Virus record (IMG/VR): IMGVR_UViG_3300025835_000003 | Coordinates: 1 to 57,373 of that record | Strand: one strand, 5' to 3' | DNA from: a virus | Taxonomy: Duplodnaviria > Caudoviricetes | DNA: 57,373 nt | In this document: positions 3,893 to 28,471 of the stretch, one piece after another | How the letters are laid out: every line of letters begins with the position of its first letter | How positions within the stretch are numbered: the stretch's first letter is position 1 | Made by a program: the position numbers and the translations under genes | Notes under the pieces: generated by a model | Seen by the model: only the letters and a program-made list of their open reading frames with translations | Told to the model about the DNA's origin: nothing | Database searches by the model: none

Positions 3893-4249
3893 ATGGCAAG
3901 ACCTGATGTATTCAATGATACGTTTACAAGCGGAGATACCATTGTATTCCGTTTGTTCATAAAATCCAGCAAGGCTGTGGAACCACTCGATCTTTCTGAA
4001 TTGACTGCGGCTCGCTATGGAATCTTTGACAAGATAACAGGAGCTAGCATCCTGGAGAAAACTCTTGGTAATGGTATTTTGATAGAGTCTCCGACAGATG
4101 GAATACTCATCGTTTCCTTAACTCCAGCAGATACCGCTCCGCTGGTCAACACCTATAACCATGAACTGGAACTGAATATAAATAATCAGGAAAAGGTGGT
4201 AACTGTGTTTCAGGGTACCATCGGATTCATTGAGGATAAGTTAGTATAA
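3893..4249 (+). CDS. BppU-N-like fibre adaptor protein
   Basis: GDT...DLS...G...VSLTPADTA...YNHELE...TVFQGTI pattern; RBS AGGAG. Confidence 0.6.
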
Positions 4250-4265
4250 GGATGATATCATTATT

Positions 4266-4427
4266 ATGCCGCTCAAGAAAGGCACCAGCCAAAAGACAAT
4301 CAGTGAAAATATACGGGAGCTTGTAGCTTCTGGCAAACCACAAAAGCAATCGATAGCCATAGCTTTGAGAGAAGCCGGCATCGCCCGTAAACAAACAAAA
4401 TCTAAAGGTATTAAAGCATCATCATGA
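4266..4427 (+). CDS. Small basic phage protein, [16 protein letters not shown] family (53 aa; absent from the ORF track)
   Basis: Translated by hand: [38 protein letters not shown]...; ATGA overlap with the next gene. Confidence 0.8.
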
Positions 4428-5110
4428 CAACATCTATTGTAACAATTCCTTTCGTTGTAAGGGGTGAGCAATTCATATTAGAGATTCGCAGACCCGAAGT
4501 CACCCCGGAAGTTCCCCCGGGCGCTCCGCCTGAACCCGGTCCAGATCCTTTGCCACCAGATCCACCGACTCTGCCGGATGCCCCCGATAATGAACCTCCT
4601 CCGCCCATGTCGGAACCTTTCCGGTGGAAGAATCTGGATTTCGAGCAAGGGACTACAGGATGGTCCATATCTGATAACACCCTTGGTATATTTGATACTA
4701 CGACTAATCCTAACGAAGTCATCGAGGGCACAGCAAGCGGTATTTATGTTGGTCGACCAGGAGGATTAGCGCGGATGCAAATCCTCACTGACCCCTTACC
4801 TGTACCACCTGGAGCAAAATGGAATCTTTCTTTCAAGGCTCGCACGATTGCCACTTCCCTTGGGCAGACATCAATATCCTTGCGAGTCCGCATATTTCGC
4901 CCAGATGGATCTGATGTATTATCAATCATAGGTCCTTTTAATACTTCTGACTTCACAGGGACAATGCCGACACGCACTATCTCTATGGGAGGTACGATAC
5001 CTGAGTTTGAAGGGGACGCTATGATGCAATTTGGACTGATCGTGCAGAATCCGGTAGGTATGACGCGGGTGGTATTCGATGATTTTAAAATGGAGATCAC
5101 ACCCAAATGA
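4424..5110 (+). CDS. Pro-rich linker plus carbohydrate-binding (CBM4/9-like) domain protein
   Basis: [13 protein letters not shown] linker, then the [11 protein letters not shown]...VFDDFKM galactose-binding-like pattern. Confidence 0.6.
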
Positions 5111-5517
5111 TGAAGTTACCGTTGAAGGCACATATATCATGGACTCGCTTGTGGCAGACGCGCCTAGTCTTTATACCGAAATGGATACGGATGTGGCAAG
5201 AACCGCTGATCTGGTTGCCTCTGTTGCTGTTGCTGCTGTGGCTGGCCGACTGGTTGTTACCGCAAATAGACCCCGACGCAGGGATCGATGGGCCGGGGTT
5301 CCTGTATGGTTTAGTCCAAGCCATGATCGCTTTCGCAGTAGCGGGATTTGTGGCGTGGATTGCTCAGCGTACCTATGGAGTATCTCTATCCGAGGAACGC
5401 GAGGAAGAAGTCCTGGGAGAATGCAGGAAAGGTAAGGTAGGCTCCATGTTTGTTATTGCTCTCCCTTGGATACAGTGGTTTTTGGTATTTTATTTGATGT
5501 GGGATAAGATGGCATAG
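5107..5517 (+). CDS. Putative holin (3 hydrophobic segments)
   Basis: Multiple TM-like stretches, upstream of the endolysin. Confidence 0.55.
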   Translation: MMKLPLKAHISWTRLWQTRLVFIPKWIRMWQEPLIWLPLLLLLLWLADWLLPQIDPDAGIDGPGFLYGLVQAMIAFAVAGFVAWIAQRTYGVSLSEEREEEVLGECRKGKVGSMFVIALPWIQWFLVFYLMWDKMA

Positions 5518-5528
5518 AGAGAGATATA

Positions 5529-5720
5529 ATGACAATTCTGCAACGTTTCAAAGTGTGGGCACTTAAACAGAGAGACCTGTGGGAAGAGTGTGCAGTTATC
5601 ACGGGGGTTGTTGTCGGAGCAGCCGTGATCGGAATAGGAATTATTTTAAGTTCGGTCGGCGTAATGCTGCTCGGAGGAGCAATAGCAGCTCTGGGTGTAG
5701 CTGTGGCATGGCATGTTTAG
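5529..5720 (+). CDS. Small membrane protein (holin/antiholin candidate)
   Basis: 63 aa with two hydrophobic helices. Confidence 0.55.
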   Translation: MTILQRFKVWALKQRDLWEECAVITGVVVGAAVIGIGIILSSVGVMLLGGAIAALGVAVAWHV

Positions 5721-7579: not shown

Positions 7580-7582
7580 ATA

Positions 7583-9182
7583 GTCGGCCCTGCAAAATTC
7601 ACCCAATCGCCGCGCTGGCCGGTCCGAGGACCCGCCACGACGCGCCGGGTTGCCGCAGACCGTCTACGAGCGTGCCGAGCCACCCGAGCAACCGGCGCAA
7701 AAAAACCGGCTCGATTCCACGCCGGACGATCGCCCGCAGCAGCCAGCGCAGGTTGTACCCGGCCGCGCACAGCACCGCGTGCAGGGCATCGCCGCGGGCG
7801 CCCCGCAACCAGCAGCGGTTCATCCGGTGATCGCTCTTGGCATGGCCGATCAGCGGTTCGATCGCCTGCCGGCGCTTGAGCCAGCGGCGTTGCTTCACGG
7901 TCAGTGACTTGTACTTGCCACGGTGGATGATCTCGCAGCCGGGGTTGTCGGCATCGACACCGCGAAAACCCAGATCGACAATCACCTCCCGCGGCTGCAC
8001 ACCCAGGTCTTCGAGCAGGATCGTGGTCTGCTCCAACTGCTCGCGCAGCAGGTGGCCGTCGTAGGGATTGCCCGGAAACGTCCGCGCGCCCACCATCAAC
8101 CCCTGCCGGTGGGTCACCACGATGCCGGCCTTGACCCCGAACTCGTAGGGTTGTCGCGCCTTGCCCTTGCCGATGCACTCGACCTCCGGGGCGTGCAGGG
8201 CGTACAGCTTGTTCTTGTCCTTCGGGCGCTGGGCGCGAATCCGCTCGGCCCGTTCGCGCAGCGTGTCCAGCCGCGCCAACACCCCCGCCGAGGCGTCGGT
8301 GATGCCGGCCCGCTTGCGGGCCAGCTCGCGCAGCACGATGCCGAGAATCGTGCGCTGGCGCTTGAGCACCCGCCGCAGCCGCCGGAACTGCCGGGCGTGG
8401 GCATAGCCGCCGGCCTTGCGCCGCAGCGTCTTGCCCTCTTTGGCATGGGACTGCTTCAGGCCGATTCCGGCCGCCTTGGCCGCCTTCACCACCTGGTAGC
8501 GGGCGATCTCCAGCAGCCGGCTATCCGTGGGATAGGCCATCGCCTTCTCCTGCACCGTGGTGTCCACGATCACCCGCTCGAACTCGCACGGGCGCACGGC
8601 TTTGGTCTCGACCGCCACATCGATCGTCGCCTTCAGCAGCTCCTCCACCCCGGCCTCGCCGATCGCCGTGCGAAAGCGCCCGATCTGGGTCGCATCGCAC
8701 GGCAGCCTGGGCGTGTAGTACACCTGGCCGCTGAAAAACTGCCACACCACATTCTCCGACCAGCGCTCGACCACCGCTTCGTCGCTCAGGTTGTAGGCGT
8801 GCTTGAGATACAGCAGGCTCAGCATCAGCCGCATCGGCAACCGCGAGCGGCCCGCCACCGCCACGCCTGCGCCGATCACCTGTTCGTGGACGCCGAACAG
8901 ATCCGCCACTTCGCGCCGCGTCCCGGGCCGGTCGGTGCGCGCGAAGCACGGCGCCAGCGCCGCTTCCAGTCGCGTCCAGGGCAGCCGCGTGGCCAGTACC
9001 GCCAGCGGGTGGCGAAGGTCGATCATCTGGTCCAGACGGGTTCGGAACAAATCCGCTGTGCTCATGCGCGAAAACTCCCAGAAAACGCAACCGATGGCGC
9101 TAATTCTCGGGGGATCGGCGGGATTTGCCAAGCCCCGCAGAGCGTTGTGCTAGGCGGCTCGGCGGGGTTTTGCAGGGCCGAC
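7583..9182. mobile_element. IS5-family insertion sequence, 1600 bp
   Basis: Perfect 15-bp terminal IRs GTCGGCCCTGCAAAA (7583-7597 and 9168-9182); TAAATA on both flanks (7577-7582, 9183-9188); much more GC-rich than the phage. Confidence 0.93.
7599..9065 (-). CDS. IS5-family DDE transposase
   Basis: DLFRTRLDQMIDLRHPL, VDTTVQEK, KGKARQPYEFG, DLGFRG, RRQAIEPLIGH motifs; uninterrupted frame. Confidence 0.93.
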   Translation of the reverse strand: MSTADLFRTRLDQMIDLRHPLAVLATRLPWTRLEAALAPCFARTDRPGTRREVADLFGVHEQVIGAGVAVAGRSRLPMRLMLSLLYLKHAYNLSDEAVVERWSENVVWQFFSGQVYYTPRLPCDATQIGRFRTAIGEAGVEELLKATIDVAVETKAVRPCEFERVIVDTTVQEKAMAYPTDSRLLEIARYQVVKAAKAAGIGLKQSHAKEGKTLRRKAGGYAHARQFRRLRRVLKRQRTILGIVLRELARKRAGITDASAGVLARLDTLRERAERIRAQRPKDKNKLYALHAPEVECIGKGKARQPYEFGVKAGIVVTHRQGLMVGARTFPGNPYDGHLLREQLEQTTILLEDLGVQPREVIVDLGFRGVDADNPGCEIIHRGKYKSLTVKQRRWLKRRQAIEPLIGHAKSDHRMNRCWLRGARGDALHAVLCAAGYNLRWLLRAIVRRGIEPVFLRRLLGWLGTLVDGLRQPGASWRVLGPASAAIG

Positions 9183-9201
9183 TAAATAAACAGGCTGTCT
9201 G

Positions 9202-22364: not shown

Positions 22365-22391
22365 GGTGATTATCTTCTCCTTTCAATATGA

Positions 22392-22464
22392 TAGGCCCGC
22401 CTGGACTCGAACCAGGAACCTTAGGATTATGAGTCCTTTGCTCTTGCCGTTGAGCTACGGGCCT
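22392..22464 (-). tRNA. tRNA with CAU anticodon, probably tRNA-Ile2 (elongator Met not excluded)
   Basis: AGGCCCG/CGGGCCT acceptor stem, TAGCTCAACGG D arm, CTCATAA loop, GGTTCGAGTCC T arm; CCA not encoded. Confidence 0.88.
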
Positions 22465-22476
22465 ATTGTGGATGTG

Positions 22477-22650
22477 TCAATCCAGCAAATCTAGTGCATC
22501 CAAAAAGTAATCAGGTTCCATGCCAATTTCATATAAAAATTCTGGCACGTCCTGCTCGTAGTCATTGTTCAATAGGTCACACAATTCTTTCTTGGCCTGA
22601 CTATACAGAATACCTTCACGTGCTGCAAAAGTTTTGACTAGATCATTCAT
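22477..22650 (-). CDS. Small acidic protein (57 aa; absent from the ORF track)
   Basis: MNDLVKTFAAREG...EIGMEPDYFLDALDLLD; GAGGA RBS; 14 D/E residues. Confidence 0.7.
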   Translation of the reverse strand: MNDLVKTFAAREGILYSQAKKELCDLLNNDYEQDVPEFLYEIGMEPDYFLDALDLLD

Positions 22651-22672
22651 ATCAATTGTCCTCGATGTATGT

Positions 22673-22945
22673 TTACATGAATAGGGACACTAGCGTCCAT
22701 ACTCCTCCCACGCACAATAGTGCGAGAATGCCTCGTGCCACGAGAATGAGTATTGTGGTGTGGCGCTTGGGACGCCTAAATCTTCGCAGGGTCCTTGTTT
22801 GATTCCCGATGTGTTCGGCTATGGCAATGCACCAAGCCGGCCTGATTGTAGGGTTCACCATATCATCCTCCTTACTATACACACTTTCCAAGTGTGTGTC
22901 AAGTATTTTTGTTCCTGGCAGCTTCAGAGTTTTAGCTTTCATCAT
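22673..22945 (-). CDS. Early hypothetical protein with C-terminal TM
   Basis: MMKAKT start shared with 25754..25960. Confidence 0.6.
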   Translation of the reverse strand: MMKAKTLKLPGTKILDTHLESVYSKEDDMVNPTIRPAWCIAIAEHIGNQTRTLRRFRRPKRHTTILILVARGILALLCVGGVWTLVSLFM

Positions 22946-23427
22946 GGGGCTTTCTCCTGTTGTTCGCCTTCGGCTATGTATAGGTTTGCAAATTTACTGA
23001 CTTTGGCGCGCTCGCATGTTGCCGCTGCGTGTTCAATGGCTTTGATATGTCGCTCATTCGCCGTCTTGATTGCTCTTGCATAACGGGCGGAAGCATCTTC
23101 ACGCCATGTTTGAAGCGAAATGTCATATTCCGATTGATATCTTTTCCATGCTCGACTCGCTTCGCTGTTGAACTTTTCAAGATCAACGACCTCGTTAGTG
23201 TGCAATATCTTCTCTATGTGCACACGCGCCGTCTCAAATGCAGCAAAGCCTTCAGGTTGCAGAAGCATTTACGCCGCCTGGCGCCAATCGAATTCGCCAG
23301 CATACTCCCTTGCCAGTTCGGCGGTCACTTCGACCGAGTCCACGAACGTGCGCAGGAACTTATCTTCCTGTGCTGGGTATACATTGGCATTCCGTAGCTG
23401 ATCAATTGTCAGAAGTCTGGATTTCAT
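22942..23427 (-). pseudogene. Early family-A paralogue split by an in-frame TAA at 23269-23271
   Basis: MKSRLLTIDQLRNA...DWRQAA*MLLQPEGF aligns with intact paralogues (FWAAEHFLRPEGF). Confidence 0.7.
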
Positions 23428-23464
23428 GGTACTGGCCTCGCTTACAATAGAAAGTGTTGGCAAC

Positions 23465-23500
23465 ATTCTAGCACGATAGGATGAACGTAGGATGAACGTA
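23465..23500 (-). promoter_or_regulatory. Extended -10 promoter (TGcTAGAAT) with an 11-bp tandem CGTTCATCCTA repeat over the -35 region
   Basis: TAGGATGAACG twice on the plus strand at 23477-23498. Confidence 0.55.
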
Positions 23501-23502
23501 TG

Positions 23503-23880
23503 TCAGGAATCGCCACCCTCGGCGATGTATAGACGGGCGAAGGCGCGAGCTATAGTCTGCTCGTGCTGCCGTAAGATCGTGGCATTGATATGAGTGGGTA
23601 CACGGCATAGTTCACCGCGGGCGTCTTTGACCGCGCGCAGCCTTTTCCGATCCGCACGCGCGACAATCGCATTAAACCGAGTAAAACCTTCAGGCCGCAA
23701 AAAGTGTTCCGCTGCCCAGAAGCAGTTAAACTTTTGCGCATGATCTGACGCTAGCTCGATCGTCACTTTGACCGACTCGTCAAACATCTCGTGGAATAGG
23801 TCGCGTTGTGATTGGCACGCTTTGGCATTCTGTAATTGTGCGAGTGTGAGGGTTCTGTATTTCTTCGTGGTAGTTGTCAT
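23503..23880 (-). CDS. Early family-A paralogue
   Basis: RTLTLAQLQNAKAC..Q.DLF...SVKVT...ARAFARLYIAEG; AAGGAG RBS. Confidence 0.75.
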   Translation of the reverse strand: MTTTTKKYRTLTLAQLQNAKACQSQRDLFHEMFDESVKVTIELASDHAQKFNCFWAAEHFLRPEGFTRFNAIVARADRKRLRAVKDARGELCRVPTHINATILRQHEQTIARAFARLYIAEGGDS

Positions 23881-23927
23881 AGCTGTCTCCTTAGGGTCAC
23901 GGCCTGACGAATGTCTGATCATGACTC

Positions 23928-23973
23928 ATTGTAGCGCGTGTGCGACAAGTGTCAATAGGGAAAGCTGAACAGG
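23928..23973 (-). promoter_or_regulatory. sigma70-type early promoter TTGACA-N16-TACAAT with a 24-bp upstream repeat
   Basis: CCTGTTCAGCTTTCCCTATTGACA is identical at 23950-23973 and 26680-26703. Confidence 0.75.
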
Positions 23974-24056
23974 AAAAAGACAATTCTGAACGTAATTTCT
24001 GCGTTGGCATGGTTTTTGTCAATACAAATATCGTGCCAGCGTGACAACAGCAAGAT

Positions 24057-24084
24057 TTGACAGGCGGCGCGACAGCGCTACACT
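24057..24084 (+). promoter_or_regulatory. sigma70-type promoter TTGACA-N16-TACACT, antisense to the R-M remnant
   Basis: Consensus match at the left junction of the captured segment. Confidence 0.55.
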
Positions 24085-24233
24085 ATCATGCGCGCTTCCC
24101 GGCTCACCTTGGTCTTCATGCCGTGCGCGTCGATGCCACCCACCACTTGCTGGATTTCGGCCCAAAGCCGCTCGCGGTGGACCAGCAGATATTCCAGCCC
24201 GTTGAGGTGCGAGTAGACCTCGGCGATTTTCAT
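24078..24233 (-). pseudogene. Truncated BstYI/BglII-family restriction endonuclease (51 aa; absent from the ORF track)
   Basis: MKIAEVYSHLNGLEYLLVHRERLWAEIQQVVGGIDA...KTKVSRE matches the R.BstYI N-terminus as I recall it (MRIVEVYSHLNGLEYIQVH); starts 10 nt after the MTase stop. Confidence 0.85.
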
Positions 24234-24243
24234 GAACCGCGGC

Positions 24244-25152
24244 TCAGATAGGCTTCACGTCTCCTTCGATCCACGGCGAGCGGGTCAAGGACTTCCCGGC
24301 GTCGGCCGGATCGAAGACAGGAGTGTTGCGGGGACGGATGCGAAGATTACCCGAGGCGGCCGCCCGGATGCGGTCGACGGCCATGTCGGCGTACTCCTTC
24401 ACCAGTTCCGCACCCGCACCGCGCCGGCCGCACCGGACTGCCGCCGCCATGGTGGTGCCGACGCCCGCATAAGGATCGAGCACCCACTCGTCGGGCCGGG
24501 TCAGCGCCAGCACCAGGCGCTCCACCAGCTCCACGGGAAACTGGCACGGGTGACCGGTCTTCTCGACATGGTTGCTCTTCACGTTCGGGATGATCCAGAC
24601 ATCGCCCGGGTTCTTGCCGAGAGGATTGCAGGAATACTGACCGGCCTTCGGCCCCTTGAAGTGCTTCTTCCCGGGGTACTTCTGCGGCACTCGGATCGGA
24701 TCCACATCGAAATGGTAGTCGTCGCCCTTGGTGAACCAGCAGATGGTCTCGTACCGCCCCGATAGGCGCCGGGTGCAGTGCAACCCGTGCTCGAAATGCC
24801 AGACGATCCGGTTGCGGAGCTTGAGGCCGTGCGCGGCAAACAGCGGATACAGGGCAATGTCGAGCGGAACGATGCTGCTCGCCTTGCCTTTCTCCACGTA
24901 GTTGCCGACCTGCCAGCACAGGCTGCCGCCGGGCGCGAGTACTCTCACGCACTCGGCGATGACCGGAGCCTGCTCCTCCAGATAACGATCCAGGCTCATC
25001 CGGGCCTCGTAGGCCTTGCCGACGTTGTAGGGCGGCGATGTCACTACCAACTGGATCGACTCGGACGCAATCTGGTCGAGCAGTTCGCGGCAATCGCCGT
25101 GGTAGGCCACCGCCCGCGCAGCTGGGTCGAATCTTGTCTTTACTTCTAGCAT
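24244..25152 (-). CDS. Beta-class amino-DNA methyltransferase, M.BstYI/M.BglII-like (probably N4-cytosine)
   Basis: TSPPY catalytic motif precedes HPCQFP and the DPYAGVGTT SAM motif; GC-rich. Confidence 0.92.
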   Translation of the reverse strand: MLEVKTRFDPAARAVAYHGDCRELLDQIASESIQLVVTSPPYNVGKAYEARMSLDRYLEEQAPVIAECVRVLAPGGSLCWQVGNYVEKGKASSIVPLDIALYPLFAAHGLKLRNRIVWHFEHGLHCTRRLSGRYETICWFTKGDDYHFDVDPIRVPQKYPGKKHFKGPKAGQYSCNPLGKNPGDVWIIPNVKSNHVEKTGHPCQFPVELVERLVLALTRPDEWVLDPYAGVGTTMAAAVRCGRRGAGAELVKEYADMAVDRIRAAASGNLRIRPRNTPVFDPADAGKSLTRSPWIEGDVKPI

Positions 25153-25238
25153 GGTAGCCCCTCGTTGCTGAAGTGTCGCTCACGTCCGTGAAATCTAAAC
25201 CCATCGACAAAATCGTTAAAATCTATGTTCCGGTACAT
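25146..25238 (-). pseudogene. Truncated phage gene (MYRNIDFNDFVDGFRFHGRERHFSNEGL) abutting the MTase
   Basis: Strong GAGAGGA RBS; the frame runs into the MTase start and stops after 30 codons. Confidence 0.55.
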
Positions 25239-25297
25239 GCCTAGTCCTCTCGTCTGTGGTAGTGTGCGGCGCTTTGCCCGACACCACATCGGGTTAA

Positions 25298-25456
25298 TCA
25301 ATGCCAACCTCTGAGGTTCAGCAACACAGCCGCAGTCATAAACGGCCACAGCAAGGCGTAAAGTAGCTCAGTATTATTATACGATCCCGGAAGATGCCCG
25401 GATCCATAGACTGAGATAACACCTACCACGTACACAATCATCAATGACAGCATCAT
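25298..25456 (-). CDS. Small membrane protein (52 aa; absent from the ORF track)
   Basis: MMLSLMIVYVVGVISVYG...LLYALLWP; GAGGA RBS. Confidence 0.65.
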   Translation of the reverse strand: MMLSLMIVYVVGVISVYGSGHLPGSYNNTELLYALLWPFMTAAVLLNLRGWH

Positions 25457-25469
25457 AGCAGTATCCTCA

Positions 25470-25757
25470 TTATTTGGCTATATCGGCTTTAGCTTGCTGG
25501 TCCATCATGGTGATGACATCGGACAACACAAACGCCGCATCGCGCAGCATATCGGCGCGTATGGCGATATATGTCAGGCGCTCGCTCCGGCGAAACTCAT
25601 CCGACTGGACCGGTGCCACACGTGCGGCCTCAGCGGCCTCATCTGAGAGCATGCCCCATGCACGGCAGGCTGCATAAGCGGCCTCCTCGGCCTGTTCAGC
25701 TGCCCTGCGGGCGAGCTCTTCGAGGGATGCGCTGGCGGTTGTGGTGGGTGTCGTCAT
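25470..25757 (-). CDS. Early family-B paralogue
   Basis: SLEELARRAAEQA...SDEF.RSE.LT.IA.RAD.LRDAA, shared with 26319..26579. Confidence 0.75.
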   Translation of the reverse strand: MTTPTTTASASLEELARRAAEQAEEAAYAACRAWGMLSDEAAEAARVAPVQSDEFRRSERLTYIAIRADMLRDAAFVLSDVITMMDQQAKADIAK

Positions 25758-25960
25758 GGTGTTCTCCCTTCGTTCTTGTAGAAGTCAATCCAGCAATTAT
25801 CATGGTTGTACACCCCCCAATATTCGCCAATCCGCATAGGCAAGGTTCCGCGTGCACACAACCAGACGCTGACACCTTGCAGCGGTCCGCCATTCAGTCG
25901 GTAGAGCTTTTTACGCCCAGGTGTGAGGGGCTTTAGTTTAAAGGTTTTAGCTTTCATCAT
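25754..25960 (-). CDS. Early hypothetical protein
   Basis: AGGAG RBS; coupled overlaps on both sides. Confidence 0.65.
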   Translation of the reverse strand: MMKAKTFKLKPLTPGRKKLYRLNGGPLQGVSVWLCARGTLPMRIGEYWGVYNHDNCWIDFYKNEGRTP

Positions 25961-26313
25961 GGGGCTTTCTCCTGTTGTTCGCCTTCGGCTATGTACGCGT
26001 GAGCGAAGGCGCGCGCAACAGCCCGCCTATACAGGGCCAAGAATTTTGCTAAGTCTACCGAGCTGCTGACCTTTATTACCATAGGTATAGTTCTCTGATC
26101 CGCGCGGGCGACAGCTACATCAAACCGAGCAAGGCCTTTTAGACTCAGCAAGTTCCTAGCCGCCCACTGCCAGTCGAAGACATTGTGGAAGCTGGCAGCG
26201 CGTCGGGCCGTTACCTTGACCGACTCGCCGAACAGGCTGCGGAACAGGTCACATTGTGACTTCCATGCTCCGGCATCACGTAACTGCTTGAGGGTTAGAG
26301 TTCTCGATTTCAT
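25957..26313 (-). CDS. Early family-A paralogue
   Basis: MKSRTLTLKQLRDAGA...YIAEGEQQEKAP. Confidence 0.75.
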   Translation of the reverse strand: MKSRTLTLKQLRDAGAWKSQCDLFRSLFGESVKVTARRAASFHNVFDWQWAARNLLSLKGLARFDVAVARADQRTIPMVIKVSSSVDLAKFLALYRRAVARAFAHAYIAEGEQQEKAP

Positions 26314-26318
26314 GGTGC

Positions 26319-26579
26319 TTATTCAGCTTGCTGGTCCATTATGGCAATGACACCAGACAGCGCGTAGGCTGCATCGCGCAGCGTGTCGGCGCGGACGGCG
26401 ATACGTGTTAGGTGTTCGCTCCGGCAGAACTCGTCCGAATGGATCGATGCCGTACGCGCGGCGCTGGCGGCTTCATCCGAAAGTGTGGCCCATGCGCGCC
26501 ATGCGAGATAGGCGAATTGTGCGGCCTGTTCGGACGCTCTACGTGCAACCTCTTCGAGCGACATTTCGTTGGTCGTCAT
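26319..26579 (-). CDS. Early family-B paralogue; first gene of the early arm
   Basis: AAGGA RBS; paralogue of 25470..25757. Confidence 0.75.
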   Translation of the reverse strand: MTTNEMSLEEVARRASEQAAQFAYLAWRAWATLSDEAASAARTASIHSDEFCRSEHLTRIAVRADTLRDAAYALSGVIAIMDQQAE

Positions 26580-26656
26580 GGCGTTTCATCCTTTCGTTGG
26601 TGGTGGTAGTGGCGGTGCTTTGTGACACGTGGTGGGTCATCCCTCCACGTGTCGTA

Positions 26657-26703
26657 AAGGTATCATGGTCTGCCCAGCATGTCAATAGGGAAAGCTGAAC
26701 AGG
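26657..26703 (-). promoter_or_regulatory. Main early promoter TTGACA-N17-TACCTT with extended TG
   Basis: Consensus match; shares the 24-bp repeat with 23950-23973. Confidence 0.75.
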
Positions 26704-26738
26704 GCTTAAATGATGTTAGGCAGATGGTGTGAGCATGT

Positions 26739-26757
26739 TTGCACCAGGTTGGTGCAA
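26739..26757. promoter_or_regulatory. NtrC-consensus site TTGCACCAGGTTGGTGCAA
   Basis: Exact TGCACC-N5-GGTGCA. Confidence 0.65.
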
Positions 26758-26827
26758 TCCTTACATCCTTACATTCTTACATCTCGCGCATCTATCGCCG
26801 GCCATCTGCCGGCGCATCTCTTGCCCG

Positions 26828-26852
26828 AGCTGTTGCAGCATATGCAACAGCT
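26828..26852. promoter_or_regulatory. Operator-like palindrome AGCTGTTGCA-N5-TGCAACAGCT
   Basis: Perfect 10-bp arms; regulator unassigned. Confidence 0.55.
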
Positions 26853-26890
26853 GCATCCGGTATATGGTCTGCACACAATATACATGTAGA

Positions 26891-26990
26891 TAGACAGGTC
26901 TGTCTACCATGATGTATGAGGAGATGCAGATGGATAGACAGGTCTGTCTGCATGGGCATGGAAAAAAAGAAAAATAGACAGGTCTGTCTA
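26891..26990. repeat. Three copies of the palindrome TAGACAG-GT-CTGTCTR (TetR-type operator-like)
   Basis: Copies at 26891-26906, 26935-26950 and 26975-26990. Confidence 0.85.
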
Positions 26991-26994
26991 CCAT

Positions 26995-27013
26995 AATGTA
27001 ATGTTATAACATT
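26995..27013. promoter_or_regulatory. Zur-box-like site AATGTAATGTTATAACATT
   Basis: 17 of 19 positions match AATGTTATAwTATAACATT. Confidence 0.6.
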
Positions 27014-27107
27014 CCATATTTCAGAATGGGGGGAGTAGCCCTTCGATTTGGCAGCCCTCCCCCGGCGGGGGTGGGGTACACACCCACTTACAAGGCTCAA
27101 TTTCCAG

Positions 27108-27235
27108 TTAATGCACCTGCTAATGCACATGCTAATGAACATGCCTAATGCAAAGGATAATACTGCCGGCTAATAGAGCCTATTAACTGCCGGCTAATTA
27201 ACTACCGGTTAATATATTCCACCTAACTGCTGGCA
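27108..27235. repeat. Short repeat clusters: TAATGCACATGC-type and TAACTGCCGGCTAA-type
   Basis: About four degenerate copies of each. Confidence 0.7.
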
Positions 27236-27345: not shown

Positions 27346-28128
27346 ATGCCTCTAAAACCTTCTGAATCGCTCTGTGACGGCCACGAGGGTCTTACCCTAG
27401 CCAGGGTACTACCCACCCCCTGCGTGGACCCCCTAGCTCGATTCAGGAGCCTTAAAGACCGTGTTGGGGAGTCCTTGCCCTCTCTTGTGGTGACGGAAAA
27501 GGATGCAAAGGAATATCGGTTGGGGGTCATGCCCAAGCATTTCTGGTCATCGGTACGCCTTTCTCCAGCCACTAAGGCATTGATTGAGAAGGGACAGCGG
27601 GTAAGAACTTACAACTTTCGAGCGCTTCCCTTGAAGCGAACCAAGAGTGTGAAGGCCAACTGGAAGCGCGCTTCGGTGCGCAAGCAGGTAGAGGATCAAT
27701 CACGTATACGGTCCAGGAGGCGAGACAATGTTCGAGTGAAAACCGATCCCGCCTACTCGTGGCGCAAGTATCGCCTGCGGGCCAGGCGAAAATGCCCAGA
27801 CCTTCCCTTCGATATTTCCAAGGAAGATTGGGATAGGGTCTTCTTGAAGACTCTTCAAGCAACGCCCAACGGGCGATTCCCGGCGATCCGCCGAATAGAT
27901 GGCTCTTTGGGATATACTTATGGAAACTTGCTGTTCTGCGAACCTGTGACTCCTGGGATAGGGGGTAAGCTTGGAAGCACTGAAGGGCGTATCTTGAAAG
28001 CTCTCAAAGAAGATCTTAGAGAAAATAGAAAGCGTTTTACTACTTATGATTCTTTATTGGAATATATAAGAACCAACAGCCATTATAACAAACTAAAGCA
28101 ATATATGGATATTTATTATATTCTTTAA
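27346..28128 (+). CDS. Basic protein with degenerate HNH-like homing-endonuclease motif
   Basis: RARRK...FDISKEDW...RRIDGSLGYTYGN pattern; Zn-binding cysteines not evident. Confidence 0.5.
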   Translation: MPLKPSESLCDGHEGLTLARVLPTPCVDPLARFRSLKDRVGESLPSLVVTEKDAKEYRLGVMPKHFWSSVRLSPATKALIEKGQRVRTYNFRALPLKRTKSVKANWKRASVRKQVEDQSRIRSRRRDNVRVKTDPAYSWRKYRLRARRKCPDLPFDISKEDWDRVFLKTLQATPNGRFPAIRRIDGSLGYTYGNLLFCEPVTPGIGGKLGSTEGRILKALKEDLRENRKRFTTYDSLLEYIRTNSHYNKLKQYMDIYYIL

Positions 28129-28131
28129 ATC

Positions 28132-28390
28132 AGCATGTATGTATAGCTTGCATGTATAGTCTGCATGTATAGAAGCTTCTAAGAGCTTCTAAGAGCTTTT
28201 ATATATAATATATAATATATATATATATATACACAGCTCTATAGAGCTGTGTTAAAAGCTCTTAAGAGCCAAAAAGCTCTTAAGAGCTTAAGAGCTTTTA
28301 ATATATATATCTTTTAAAGATATATATATATTATATATATAATATATATTAAGAGCTCTTAAGCTTTTTATAATTATAGTTTAAGAGTTT
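28132..28390. repeat. AT-rich palindromic island with AAGAGCT repeats
   Basis: GCATGTAT x3; palindromes ACACAGCTCTATAGAGCTGTGT, AAGCTCTTAAGAGCTT and TTAAGAGCTCTTAA; (TA)n runs. Confidence 0.8.
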
Positions 28391-28471
28391 ATGACACACC
28401 CAGCTAAAAAGGAACCCCGCCAAGACGCGGCGCTTTTCTGTATGAATGCTTAACGGATATTTATCTCGATT

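Follow-up and report, generated by a model that had tools for sequence, protein, structure and literature searches.

Among the closest described counterparts of the locus reported here is the RGATCY-specific BstYI restriction-modification (R-M) system (PDB 1SDO, 1VRR and 2P0J). Its phage-borne relative lies in IMG/VR virus record IMGVR_UViG_3300025835_000003, a linear entry of 57,373 bases with an estimated completeness of ∼90%, which was analysed whole and is called the window below. In the window, a methylase gene (M) is followed, in the same M-then-R order as in the BstYI system, by the stump of an endonuclease gene (R) that corresponds to BstYI residues 1-47. Beside bacterial relatives of M, the full-length endonucleases align with BstYI over its whole length (E 1.7e-91), whereas the phage R retains 49 homologous codons and no active site, the phage M lacks its C-terminal tail, and the location is a phage genome.

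Complete BstYI-type pairs are present in the Burkholderia phages DC1 (gp38/gp39) and BcepIL02 (gp41/gp42), with methylases 62-64% identical to M; the gene order in DC1 is the same, its 203-amino-acid (aa) “restriction endonuclease II” (gp39) following the methylase after four bases. Both phages keep the whole endonuclease and thus a working-looking R-M system, whereas the window phage keeps the methylase only, and its M is nearer to Lysobacterales genes (83% identity) than to the DC1 and BcepIL02 methylases. In both Burkholderia phages, the pair lies just upstream of the terminase gene (in DC1: L130, NC_018452.1 21690-23238). Phage NrS-3 of Nitratiruptor, according to a passage of PMC10734518, carries another phage-borne system, R.Nph3I/M.Nph3I, that likewise recognizes RGATCY and has a BglII-family endonuclease; it differs in being complete, in making N6-methyladenine (6mA) and in having an endonuclease that 6mA blocks. 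By its SPPY motif, the window M would instead group with the 6mA-insensitive BstYI type, unlike M.Nph3I.

Phage orphan methylases of bacterial origin are already textbook knowledge, and the locus is no new kind of system. Work by Murphy and colleagues in 2013 reportedly treated phage orphan DNA methyltransferases as a means against restriction. Such orphans have usually been traced to bacterial R-M systems by phylogeny alone. T4 Dam, the multispecific methylases of Bacillus phages and M.EcoGII are likewise partnerless phage methylases, and such enzymes are described in part of PMC12707154 as protecting DNA destined for export. Unlike those orphans, M still has the stump of its partner attached and, in a sister configuration, a neighbor gene of the donor, so that its origin is directly readable in the DNA and not only from phylogeny. 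It is less common for a stump, an unameliorated composition and a donor neighbor gene to be visible together.

Methylase and endonuclease stump

The three parts of the locus lie on the minus strand:

24244-25152, minus strand: orphan beta-class amino-DNA-methyltransferase M, a 302-aa open reading frame (ORF) with a PF01555 domain
24234-24243, minus strand: M-R spacer of 10 nucleotides (nt), GCCGCGGTTC in gene sense
24078-24233, minus strand: BstYI-type endonuclease gene stump, a 51-aa ORF (MKIAEVYSHLNGLEY...), recognized by its BstYI match

The family PF01555 (N6_N4_Mtase) matched M at E 1.2e-49 with 169.7 bits (cut-off, 26.7), the alignment taking in positions 1-220 of the 221 in the profile. 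TSPPY occupies residues 38-42 (SPPY, 39-42) and the motif I sequence DPYAGVGTT residues 226-234, giving motif IV, target-recognition domain and motif I in succession; this is the beta order, in which motif IV is N-terminal to the S-adenosylmethionine-binding motif I (as given in part of PMC2890505). The nearest non-self protein among 5.8 billion searched was 83% identical. M kept every column that is invariant in an alignment of 12 sequences (M and 11 relatives), those between motifs IV and I included. A preliminary description of the window, made from its letters alone, had called M a complete TSPPY beta-class methyltransferase; this stands for the catalytic core, which is whole, but not for the C terminus, where the tail of the relatives is missing. 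That tail, a variable linker followed by (Q/E)LxLL (a QLRLLE-like motif), is shared by the 11 aligned relatives without exception and by phage DC1, and is absent from both the window and L100, a metagenome contig described below. Compared with the bacterial loci L001 and L010, ∼60-90 nt of M tail and spacer are missing, in the window and L100 alike (DNA alignment A4). In an AlphaFold model of M (mean pLDDT 67.5, pTM 0.72), the core is confident through the helix at residues 252-266, and the end is disordered from residue 278, with pLDDT <50 for residues 278-302; as modeled, the missing tail thus probably lies outside the catalytic fold.

When the 51-aa ORF was searched against PDB sequences with phmmer, it matched BstYI (1sdo_A) residues 1-47 at E 2.4e-12, with the next match at E 1.7; it had no Pfam match. 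Codons 1-49 (24087-24233) are homologous to R, and codons 50-51 with the stop (24078-24086) are not: homology ends after M49, and I-V-stop stands where 16 full-length relatives have x-G. A BstYI-type endonuclease N terminus 10 nt after M, which stops at the junction with phage DNA, had been proposed from the letters, and both parts of that proposal were confirmed, although two of the 51 codons are not R sequence. The stretch D119...E128-x-Q130...K133 (BstYI numbering) is invariant in the 16 relatives and absent from the phage stump; we take it to contain the catalytic and purine-reading residues of BstYI. Ending at residue 51, far before the D119/E128/Q130 region, the stump cannot cut DNA and, judged by its sequence, would be a dead remnant without catalytic and DNA-reading parts. 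A tblastn search of the window with 59 R proteins >150 aa (of 66 complete ORFs) found no other R fragment in any frame, all other matches having E values of at least 2.0. M is therefore solitary in the window, accompanied by the N-terminal stump and by no intact cognate endonuclease gene in a record that is ∼90% complete. A frameshifted but otherwise complete R was ruled out, as no downstream R fragment was found in any frame.

The bacterial relatives of M occur in operons of the corresponding layout. When one genome per species was scanned, at least 588 M relatives turned up among 600 candidate stretches, and the best 80 were kept. In 73 of these 80 loci, a BstYI-like R homolog directly follows M (tblastn with the 51-aa peptide), with alignments that span residues 1-46 to 1-50 in 71 of the 73; seven loci had no R match, and at least one of them (L004) ends with its contig at M. 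Sixty-six R ORFs end inside their locus, 56 of them being 203 aa long, three 204-210 aa and seven 48-186 aa. The R partner in L001 matches BstYI residues 1-203 (E 1.7e-91) and PF09195 (Endonuc-BglII; 4.3e-31). In viral contigs, 18 M relatives were found (identity ≤64%); searched with one R query, an R gene was nearby in seven and a short stump in none.

The composition of the block is foreign and has not drifted toward phage values. GC content is 61-71% in 200-nt windows from 24100 to 25099, against 46.9% for the whole window, in agreement with the GC-rich block reported earlier. M and the stump have a GC content at third codon positions (GC3) of 0.82 and 0.84, respectively, whereas the phage polymerase, capsid, ribonucleotide reductase and terminase genes have 0.45-0.51.

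The short peptide could conceivably act on its own, binding the host's BstYI-type dimer as a poison subunit or decoy and so blocking it; such interference with the host enzyme, suggested speculatively in the preliminary description, found no support in the analyses. Its ORF is intact with a start codon, the exact 51-aa peptide recurs on 16 contigs, and all 17 positions that are invariant over residues 1-46 are kept (17-row alignment A3). Its divergence is also no greater than M predicts, the mean identity with bacterial homologs being 0.60 against a predicted 0.625 (residual standard deviation 0.068; 58 loci, 500 random pairs). The same facts, however, fit a capture too recent for decay, in which case conservation is uninformative on selection, and no obvious Shine-Dalgarno sequence was found in the 10-nt spacer; we thus regard a working peptide as very unlikely. 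The lack of extra decay in the stump sequence fits a young capture and says nothing on function.

Junctions, second configuration and donor lineage

The retained host-derived stretch comprises 1,073 bases (24087-25159), with phage genes flanking it on both sides. Its edges are marked by two features:

24058-24086: right junction zone, placed from the end of R homology at 24087 and from GC in 20-nt steps
25153-25159, minus strand: 7 bases before the M start that are shared with L100 with one mismatch, at 25155 (alignment A5)

The 20-mer at 24060-24079 has 75% GC, after which GC drops to the phage level; 168 nt at the right junction had no significant match in any locus or in the window other than a known 24-nt repeat. 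The left junction lies at 25159/25160 and is spanned by the Shine-Dalgarno-like sequence GAGGGG. The measured ends of identity, 24087 and 25159, are close to the positions near 24090 and 25155 at which a check had been proposed.

As the record is metagenomic, the block differs sharply in GC from its surroundings and M has a second context, a bacterial piece wrongly joined into a phage contig had to be considered. The junctions were compared with Logan contigs of four runs, X6, X7, X8 and X9, that were not flagged as sources of the record. The right junction (24087) was bridged with 0 mismatches in X6 (23000-24259), X7 (23961-24320) and X8 (23106-24188), and the left junction, in the form found in the window, with 0 mismatches in X7 (24303-25776) and X8 (24428-25728); X9 yielded short identical pieces only, with no junction bridged among the contigs listed. 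No contig in the four runs branched at 24087 into a full R gene. Additionally, 13 contigs carry the exact M protein, and the 16 mentioned above the exact peptide, with three sources represented. Since independent assemblies from other runs bridge both junctions, the block is not a chimera, which answers the concern about a chimeric assembly raised in the preliminary description, and an assembly artefact is left with an almost negligible probability. An exact 34-nt pattern from the 5′ end of M had 0 matches in viral and metagenome contigs, from which near-identical records are possibly absent.

A second configuration of the locus was recovered through X6. There, the contig covering M continues past 25159 for 137 letters unlike the window, and the first 30 of these occur in one metagenome contig, L100, with 0 matches in the window and in viral contigs. 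L100 925-2924 corresponds to window 25159-23160 at 99.85% identity, with three mismatches (25155, 25147 and 25123), all within 37 nt of the break, and zero in the other 1,963 nt. It carries the same 302-aa M, the 51-aa stump, the R/phage junction and the phage genes for 139-aa and 65-aa proteins. At 25123, 25147 and 25155, the window has A (gene sense) where L100 has G, G and C; the sites are, in gene order, -3, codon 2 and codon 10 of M, and both coding changes are synonymous.

Upstream of M, where the window has phage DNA, L100 1-924 has 61-69% GC and contains an intact NrdJb gene of Lysobacterales type, which encodes a 269-aa TSCPD-domain protein. Among 99 loci and the window, this NrdJb matched only L001 (71%) and L010 (64%), in both of which it lies directly upstream of M. 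L001 and L010 are Lysobacterales metagenome-assembled genomes (MAGs), and among the matches listed in the genome scan, their M proteins come nearest to the phage M (83 and 79%); the order in L001 is large ribonucleotide reductase subunit, 272-aa ORF, TSCPD/NrdJb, M, R. Among the 5.8 billion proteins, relatives 69-79% identical were named “NrdJb” and came nearly all from Lysobacter, Arenimonas, Luteimonas, Xanthomonadaceae and Lysobacterales, besides a few generic Gamma- or Proteobacteria MAG labels, whereas viral-contig homologs reached 51% at most. The exact NrdJb protein was present on three contigs, the longest of 20,698 nt. The R gene was found in 4 of the 301 genomes sampled from the order of MAG G001, and nrdJb-M-R in three of the four, including G190, with the operon at the same spot downstream of nrdJb. 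In L001 (a Lysobacteraceae MAG), GC3 was 0.56 for M vs. 0.82 for the neighboring nrdJb (stretches 4001-5620 and 3216-3962 of L001), so the operon looks imported there too.

In X6, the nrdJb-linked M contig had a depth of 8.6 and the phage flanks 8.0 and 6.2. Because of these depths and because no contig in the four runs branches at 24087 into an intact R, L100 as a phage variant with a longer insert is favored, although it could instead be an assembler's crossing between the phage and the donor bacterium. With either nature of L100, the block is tied to a Lysobacterales chromosomal neighborhood. The captured host M-R operon proposed in the preliminary description is thus supported by the M-then-R order in 73 of 80 bacterial loci, the foreign composition, the bridged junctions and the nrdJb-M-R order that the second configuration keeps as in Lysobacterales genomes.

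In a quick maximum-likelihood tree of M (107 rows; 97 of 98 loci included, one left out for a match <200 residues), the phage M was sister to L001 (SH-aLRT 92), and the clade around this pair (97) includes L010. The search for a donor that had been proposed pointed to Lysobacterales as a lineage, but no candidate in the collections searched was closer than 83% in protein and ∼74-76% in DNA. Two features elsewhere in the genome agree: an IS5-family transposase whose nearest named relative is from Rehaibacterium terrae (Lysobacteraceae; 80%), and a capsid protein whose nearest cultured relatives are in Xanthomonas phage DES1 (52.4% aa identity) and Stenotrophomonas phage StenR_269 (51.1%). With four agreeing lines of sequence comparison (M tree, nrdJb order, IS5 element and capsid relatives), Lysobacterales are the probable host group, which names one for an uncultured groundwater phage.

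Likely role of the methylase

The window contains 55 RGATCY sites spread over the genome, including GGATCC at 224 and AGATCT at 440, the two that had been pointed out earlier. Expected numbers are 56 from mononucleotide composition, 64 from an order-4 Markov model and 68 ± 8 in 200 first-order simulations. RGATCY is thus not avoided, and a BstYI-type enzyme would cleave the phage DNA at many places. The function of M is most likely self-methylation of these 55 sites, as suggested by its sequence, and the product is probably N4-methylcytosine (m4C). That base at RGATCY is inferred from four considerations. The PF01555 family, by its name, covers N6-adenine or N4-cytosine methylation only; BstYI is insensitive to 6mA (a passage of PMC10734518); the SPPY of motif IV in M is shared with the cytosine-N4 enzyme N4CMT, whereas the adenine enzyme CcrM has DPPY (stated in part of PMC10406627); and a figure legend of PMC2890505 places “possibly M.BstYI” among N4mC methylases. 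In the relevant passage of PMC12707154, an established use of phage orphan methylases is to methylate the phage's own progeny DNA.

Taken together, we consider it reasonably likely that a piece of a Lysobacterales BstYI-type operon was captured and trimmed, and that M was kept to methylate RGATCY and protect progeny. By illegitimate recombination, the phage would have taken up a chromosome stretch of a high-GC Lysobacterales host that held nrdJb, M and the 5′ end of R of a BstYI-type (RGATCY) Type IIP operon. The form in the window would later have lost nrdJb, with the M core intact and R down to codons 1-49; R may have been shortened at capture or by later deletion. Made during infection, an active M with RGATCY specificity would methylate the phage sites, most likely at cytosine N4, so that progeny genomes would already resist BstYI-type enzymes, whatever the strain in which they were grown. 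Such enzymes would be met in a patchy way in the host order, given the 4 of 301 genomes above. The locus would then exemplify illegitimate capture, followed by trimming, in a phage that shows no integrase, and it yields the prediction of m4C at RGATCY on phage DNA.

Several points weigh against this reading. Methylation guards progeny, whereas a first phage genome entering a restricting cell unmodified would gain nothing from it. In the PDB sequence search, the overall sequence of M was nearer to the adenine methylase M.RsrI (E 2.1e-34) than to the N4-cytosine enzyme M.PvuII (5.8e-12), and the NCBIfam (below cut-off) and JGI (automatic) labels on M are “adenine-specific.” Confidence is low for residues 148-205 of the AlphaFold model, the target-recognition region, and M is without the C-terminal tail of its relatives. 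No RNA run was among the listed runs that contain the stretch. The distance of the best donor candidates, through which the donor lineage is inferred, and the possible crossing in L100, both described above, count on the same side.

M could alternatively be a passenger on its way out, of no benefit, silent or inactive, and due to be lost like nrdJb and most of R. The missing conserved tail would fit such a fate, as would the absence of a clear promoter dedicated to M: upstream on the minus strand, the closest promoter-like site (25480-25452) is weak, scoring 9/12 against the consensus. The fully unameliorated composition marks the block as young, and 7 of the 66 complete bacterial R ORFs are <200 aa, so that decay of the operon is common. 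However, both configurations have trimmed flanking host genes and left the M ORF whole; besides the exact M protein, two other variants were found that differ by one residue each, and all three are 302 aa long. M also keeps all columns invariant among its 11 aligned relatives, and the block recurs across 18 runs from 17 studies, among them a hot-spring run of 2025. On balance, a mere passenger appears rather unlikely.

We give a distinctly low probability to retention of M for another purpose, namely, timing of phage expression, replication or packaging, like P1 Dmt. A regulatory part in the viral cycle is considered possible for many phage orphan methylases in a passage of PMC12707154, with P1 dmt as the example, and M lies in an early/middle gene block, the leftward early block, where its neighbors have the same orientation. 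Against a regulatory purpose, M comes straight from an R-M operon with the stump of its partner attached, and the RGATCY sites are spread over the genome without visible pattern, as judged informally.

A further extension of the capture reading is possible but doubtful: two domestication stages would co-circulate in the aquifer, changes at the start codon would tune translation, and the stump would possibly be kept as a decoy. The longer form would be nrdJb, M and the R stump, and the form in the window its trimmed derivative, in which the three G/C-to-A changes at the joint would loosen mRNA structure and tune M translation. If true, this would be a natural time series of a virulent phage turning a host defense operon into a counter-defense gene, in which the donor neighborhood, the truncation point of R and the earliest adaptive changes could all still be read.

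The phage and other features of its genome

The phage is of virulent type and comes from groundwater, and the window covers nearly all of its genome. Scanned against PHROG, 64 ORFs yielded packaging and structural proteins (small and large terminase, portal, major head protein and tail proteins), replication proteins (DNA polymerase, primase, DnaB-type helicase and exonuclease) and, for nucleotide metabolism, a dCMP deaminase and a class II ribonucleotide reductase. Of the 64 ORFs, the transposase of an insertion sequence (IS) alone matched “integration and excision,” and no integrase was found; a prophage junction or an origin by specialized transduction was ruled out on this ground.

Cultured phages gave no match by megablast or blastn, or only 151 nt of the portal gene at 70%, and neither the flanking 139-aa protein nor the primase found a relative in scans of viral contigs. 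The exact sequences of three ORF products had no match in the protein collection, where starts are probably called differently. The stretch or parts of it are nevertheless present in 18 listed runs from 17 studies (X1-X18), mostly 2017 groundwater and aquifer metagenomes, together with the 2025 hot-spring metagenome, in which short contigs were identical to the window; five of the 18 runs were flagged as possible sources of the record. Presence in runs of 17 studies from 2017 to 2025 indicates that the phage is widespread and stable over years.

The block lies within an early region (22600-27150) of paralogous small-gene cassettes with minus-strand sigma-70-like promoters. This region contains repeats of 240 nt (25488-25727/26322-26561, 74% identity) and 61 nt (22920-22980/25935-25995, 93%), and an exact 24-nt repeat in the promoter core region (23950-23973 and 26680-26703), the one encountered at the right junction. 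The products of the early cassettes had no Pfam, PHROG or cultured-phage match, including by tblastn of a 118-aa paralog. Other features of the window are as follows:

23928-23955, minus strand: sigma-70-like promoter TTGACA-16-TACAAT of the early gene at 23503-23922 (minus strand), by consensus only (11/12)
24057-24084, plus strand: promoter-like TTGACA-16-TACACT, located right at the junction of R stump and phage DNA and directed antisense into the stump and M, by consensus only (10/12)
7581-9184: IS5-family element of 69% GC with perfect 17-nt terminal inverted repeats
7599-9131, minus strand: IS5 transposase of 510 aa, by ORF and domains (DUF772 and DDE_Tnp_1)
22390-22465, minus strand: tRNA-Met (CAT), the only tRNA, by ARAGORN and Rfam RF00005 (68 bits)

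The promoter at 23928-23955 marks the return to the phage's early-region architecture. The IS element is unusual in a phage without an integrase; the 7-nt CTAAATA found at each of its ends overlaps the repeats and points to a small target duplication of the TAA type. Queries with the IS transposase in the MAGs G001 and G002 were negative (0 of 2). An Rfam scan of the window found the tRNA only. Lastly, the stretch at 28000-28400, between the leftward early and rightward structural blocks, has 20-30% GC, and this AT-rich segment may be a control or origin region.

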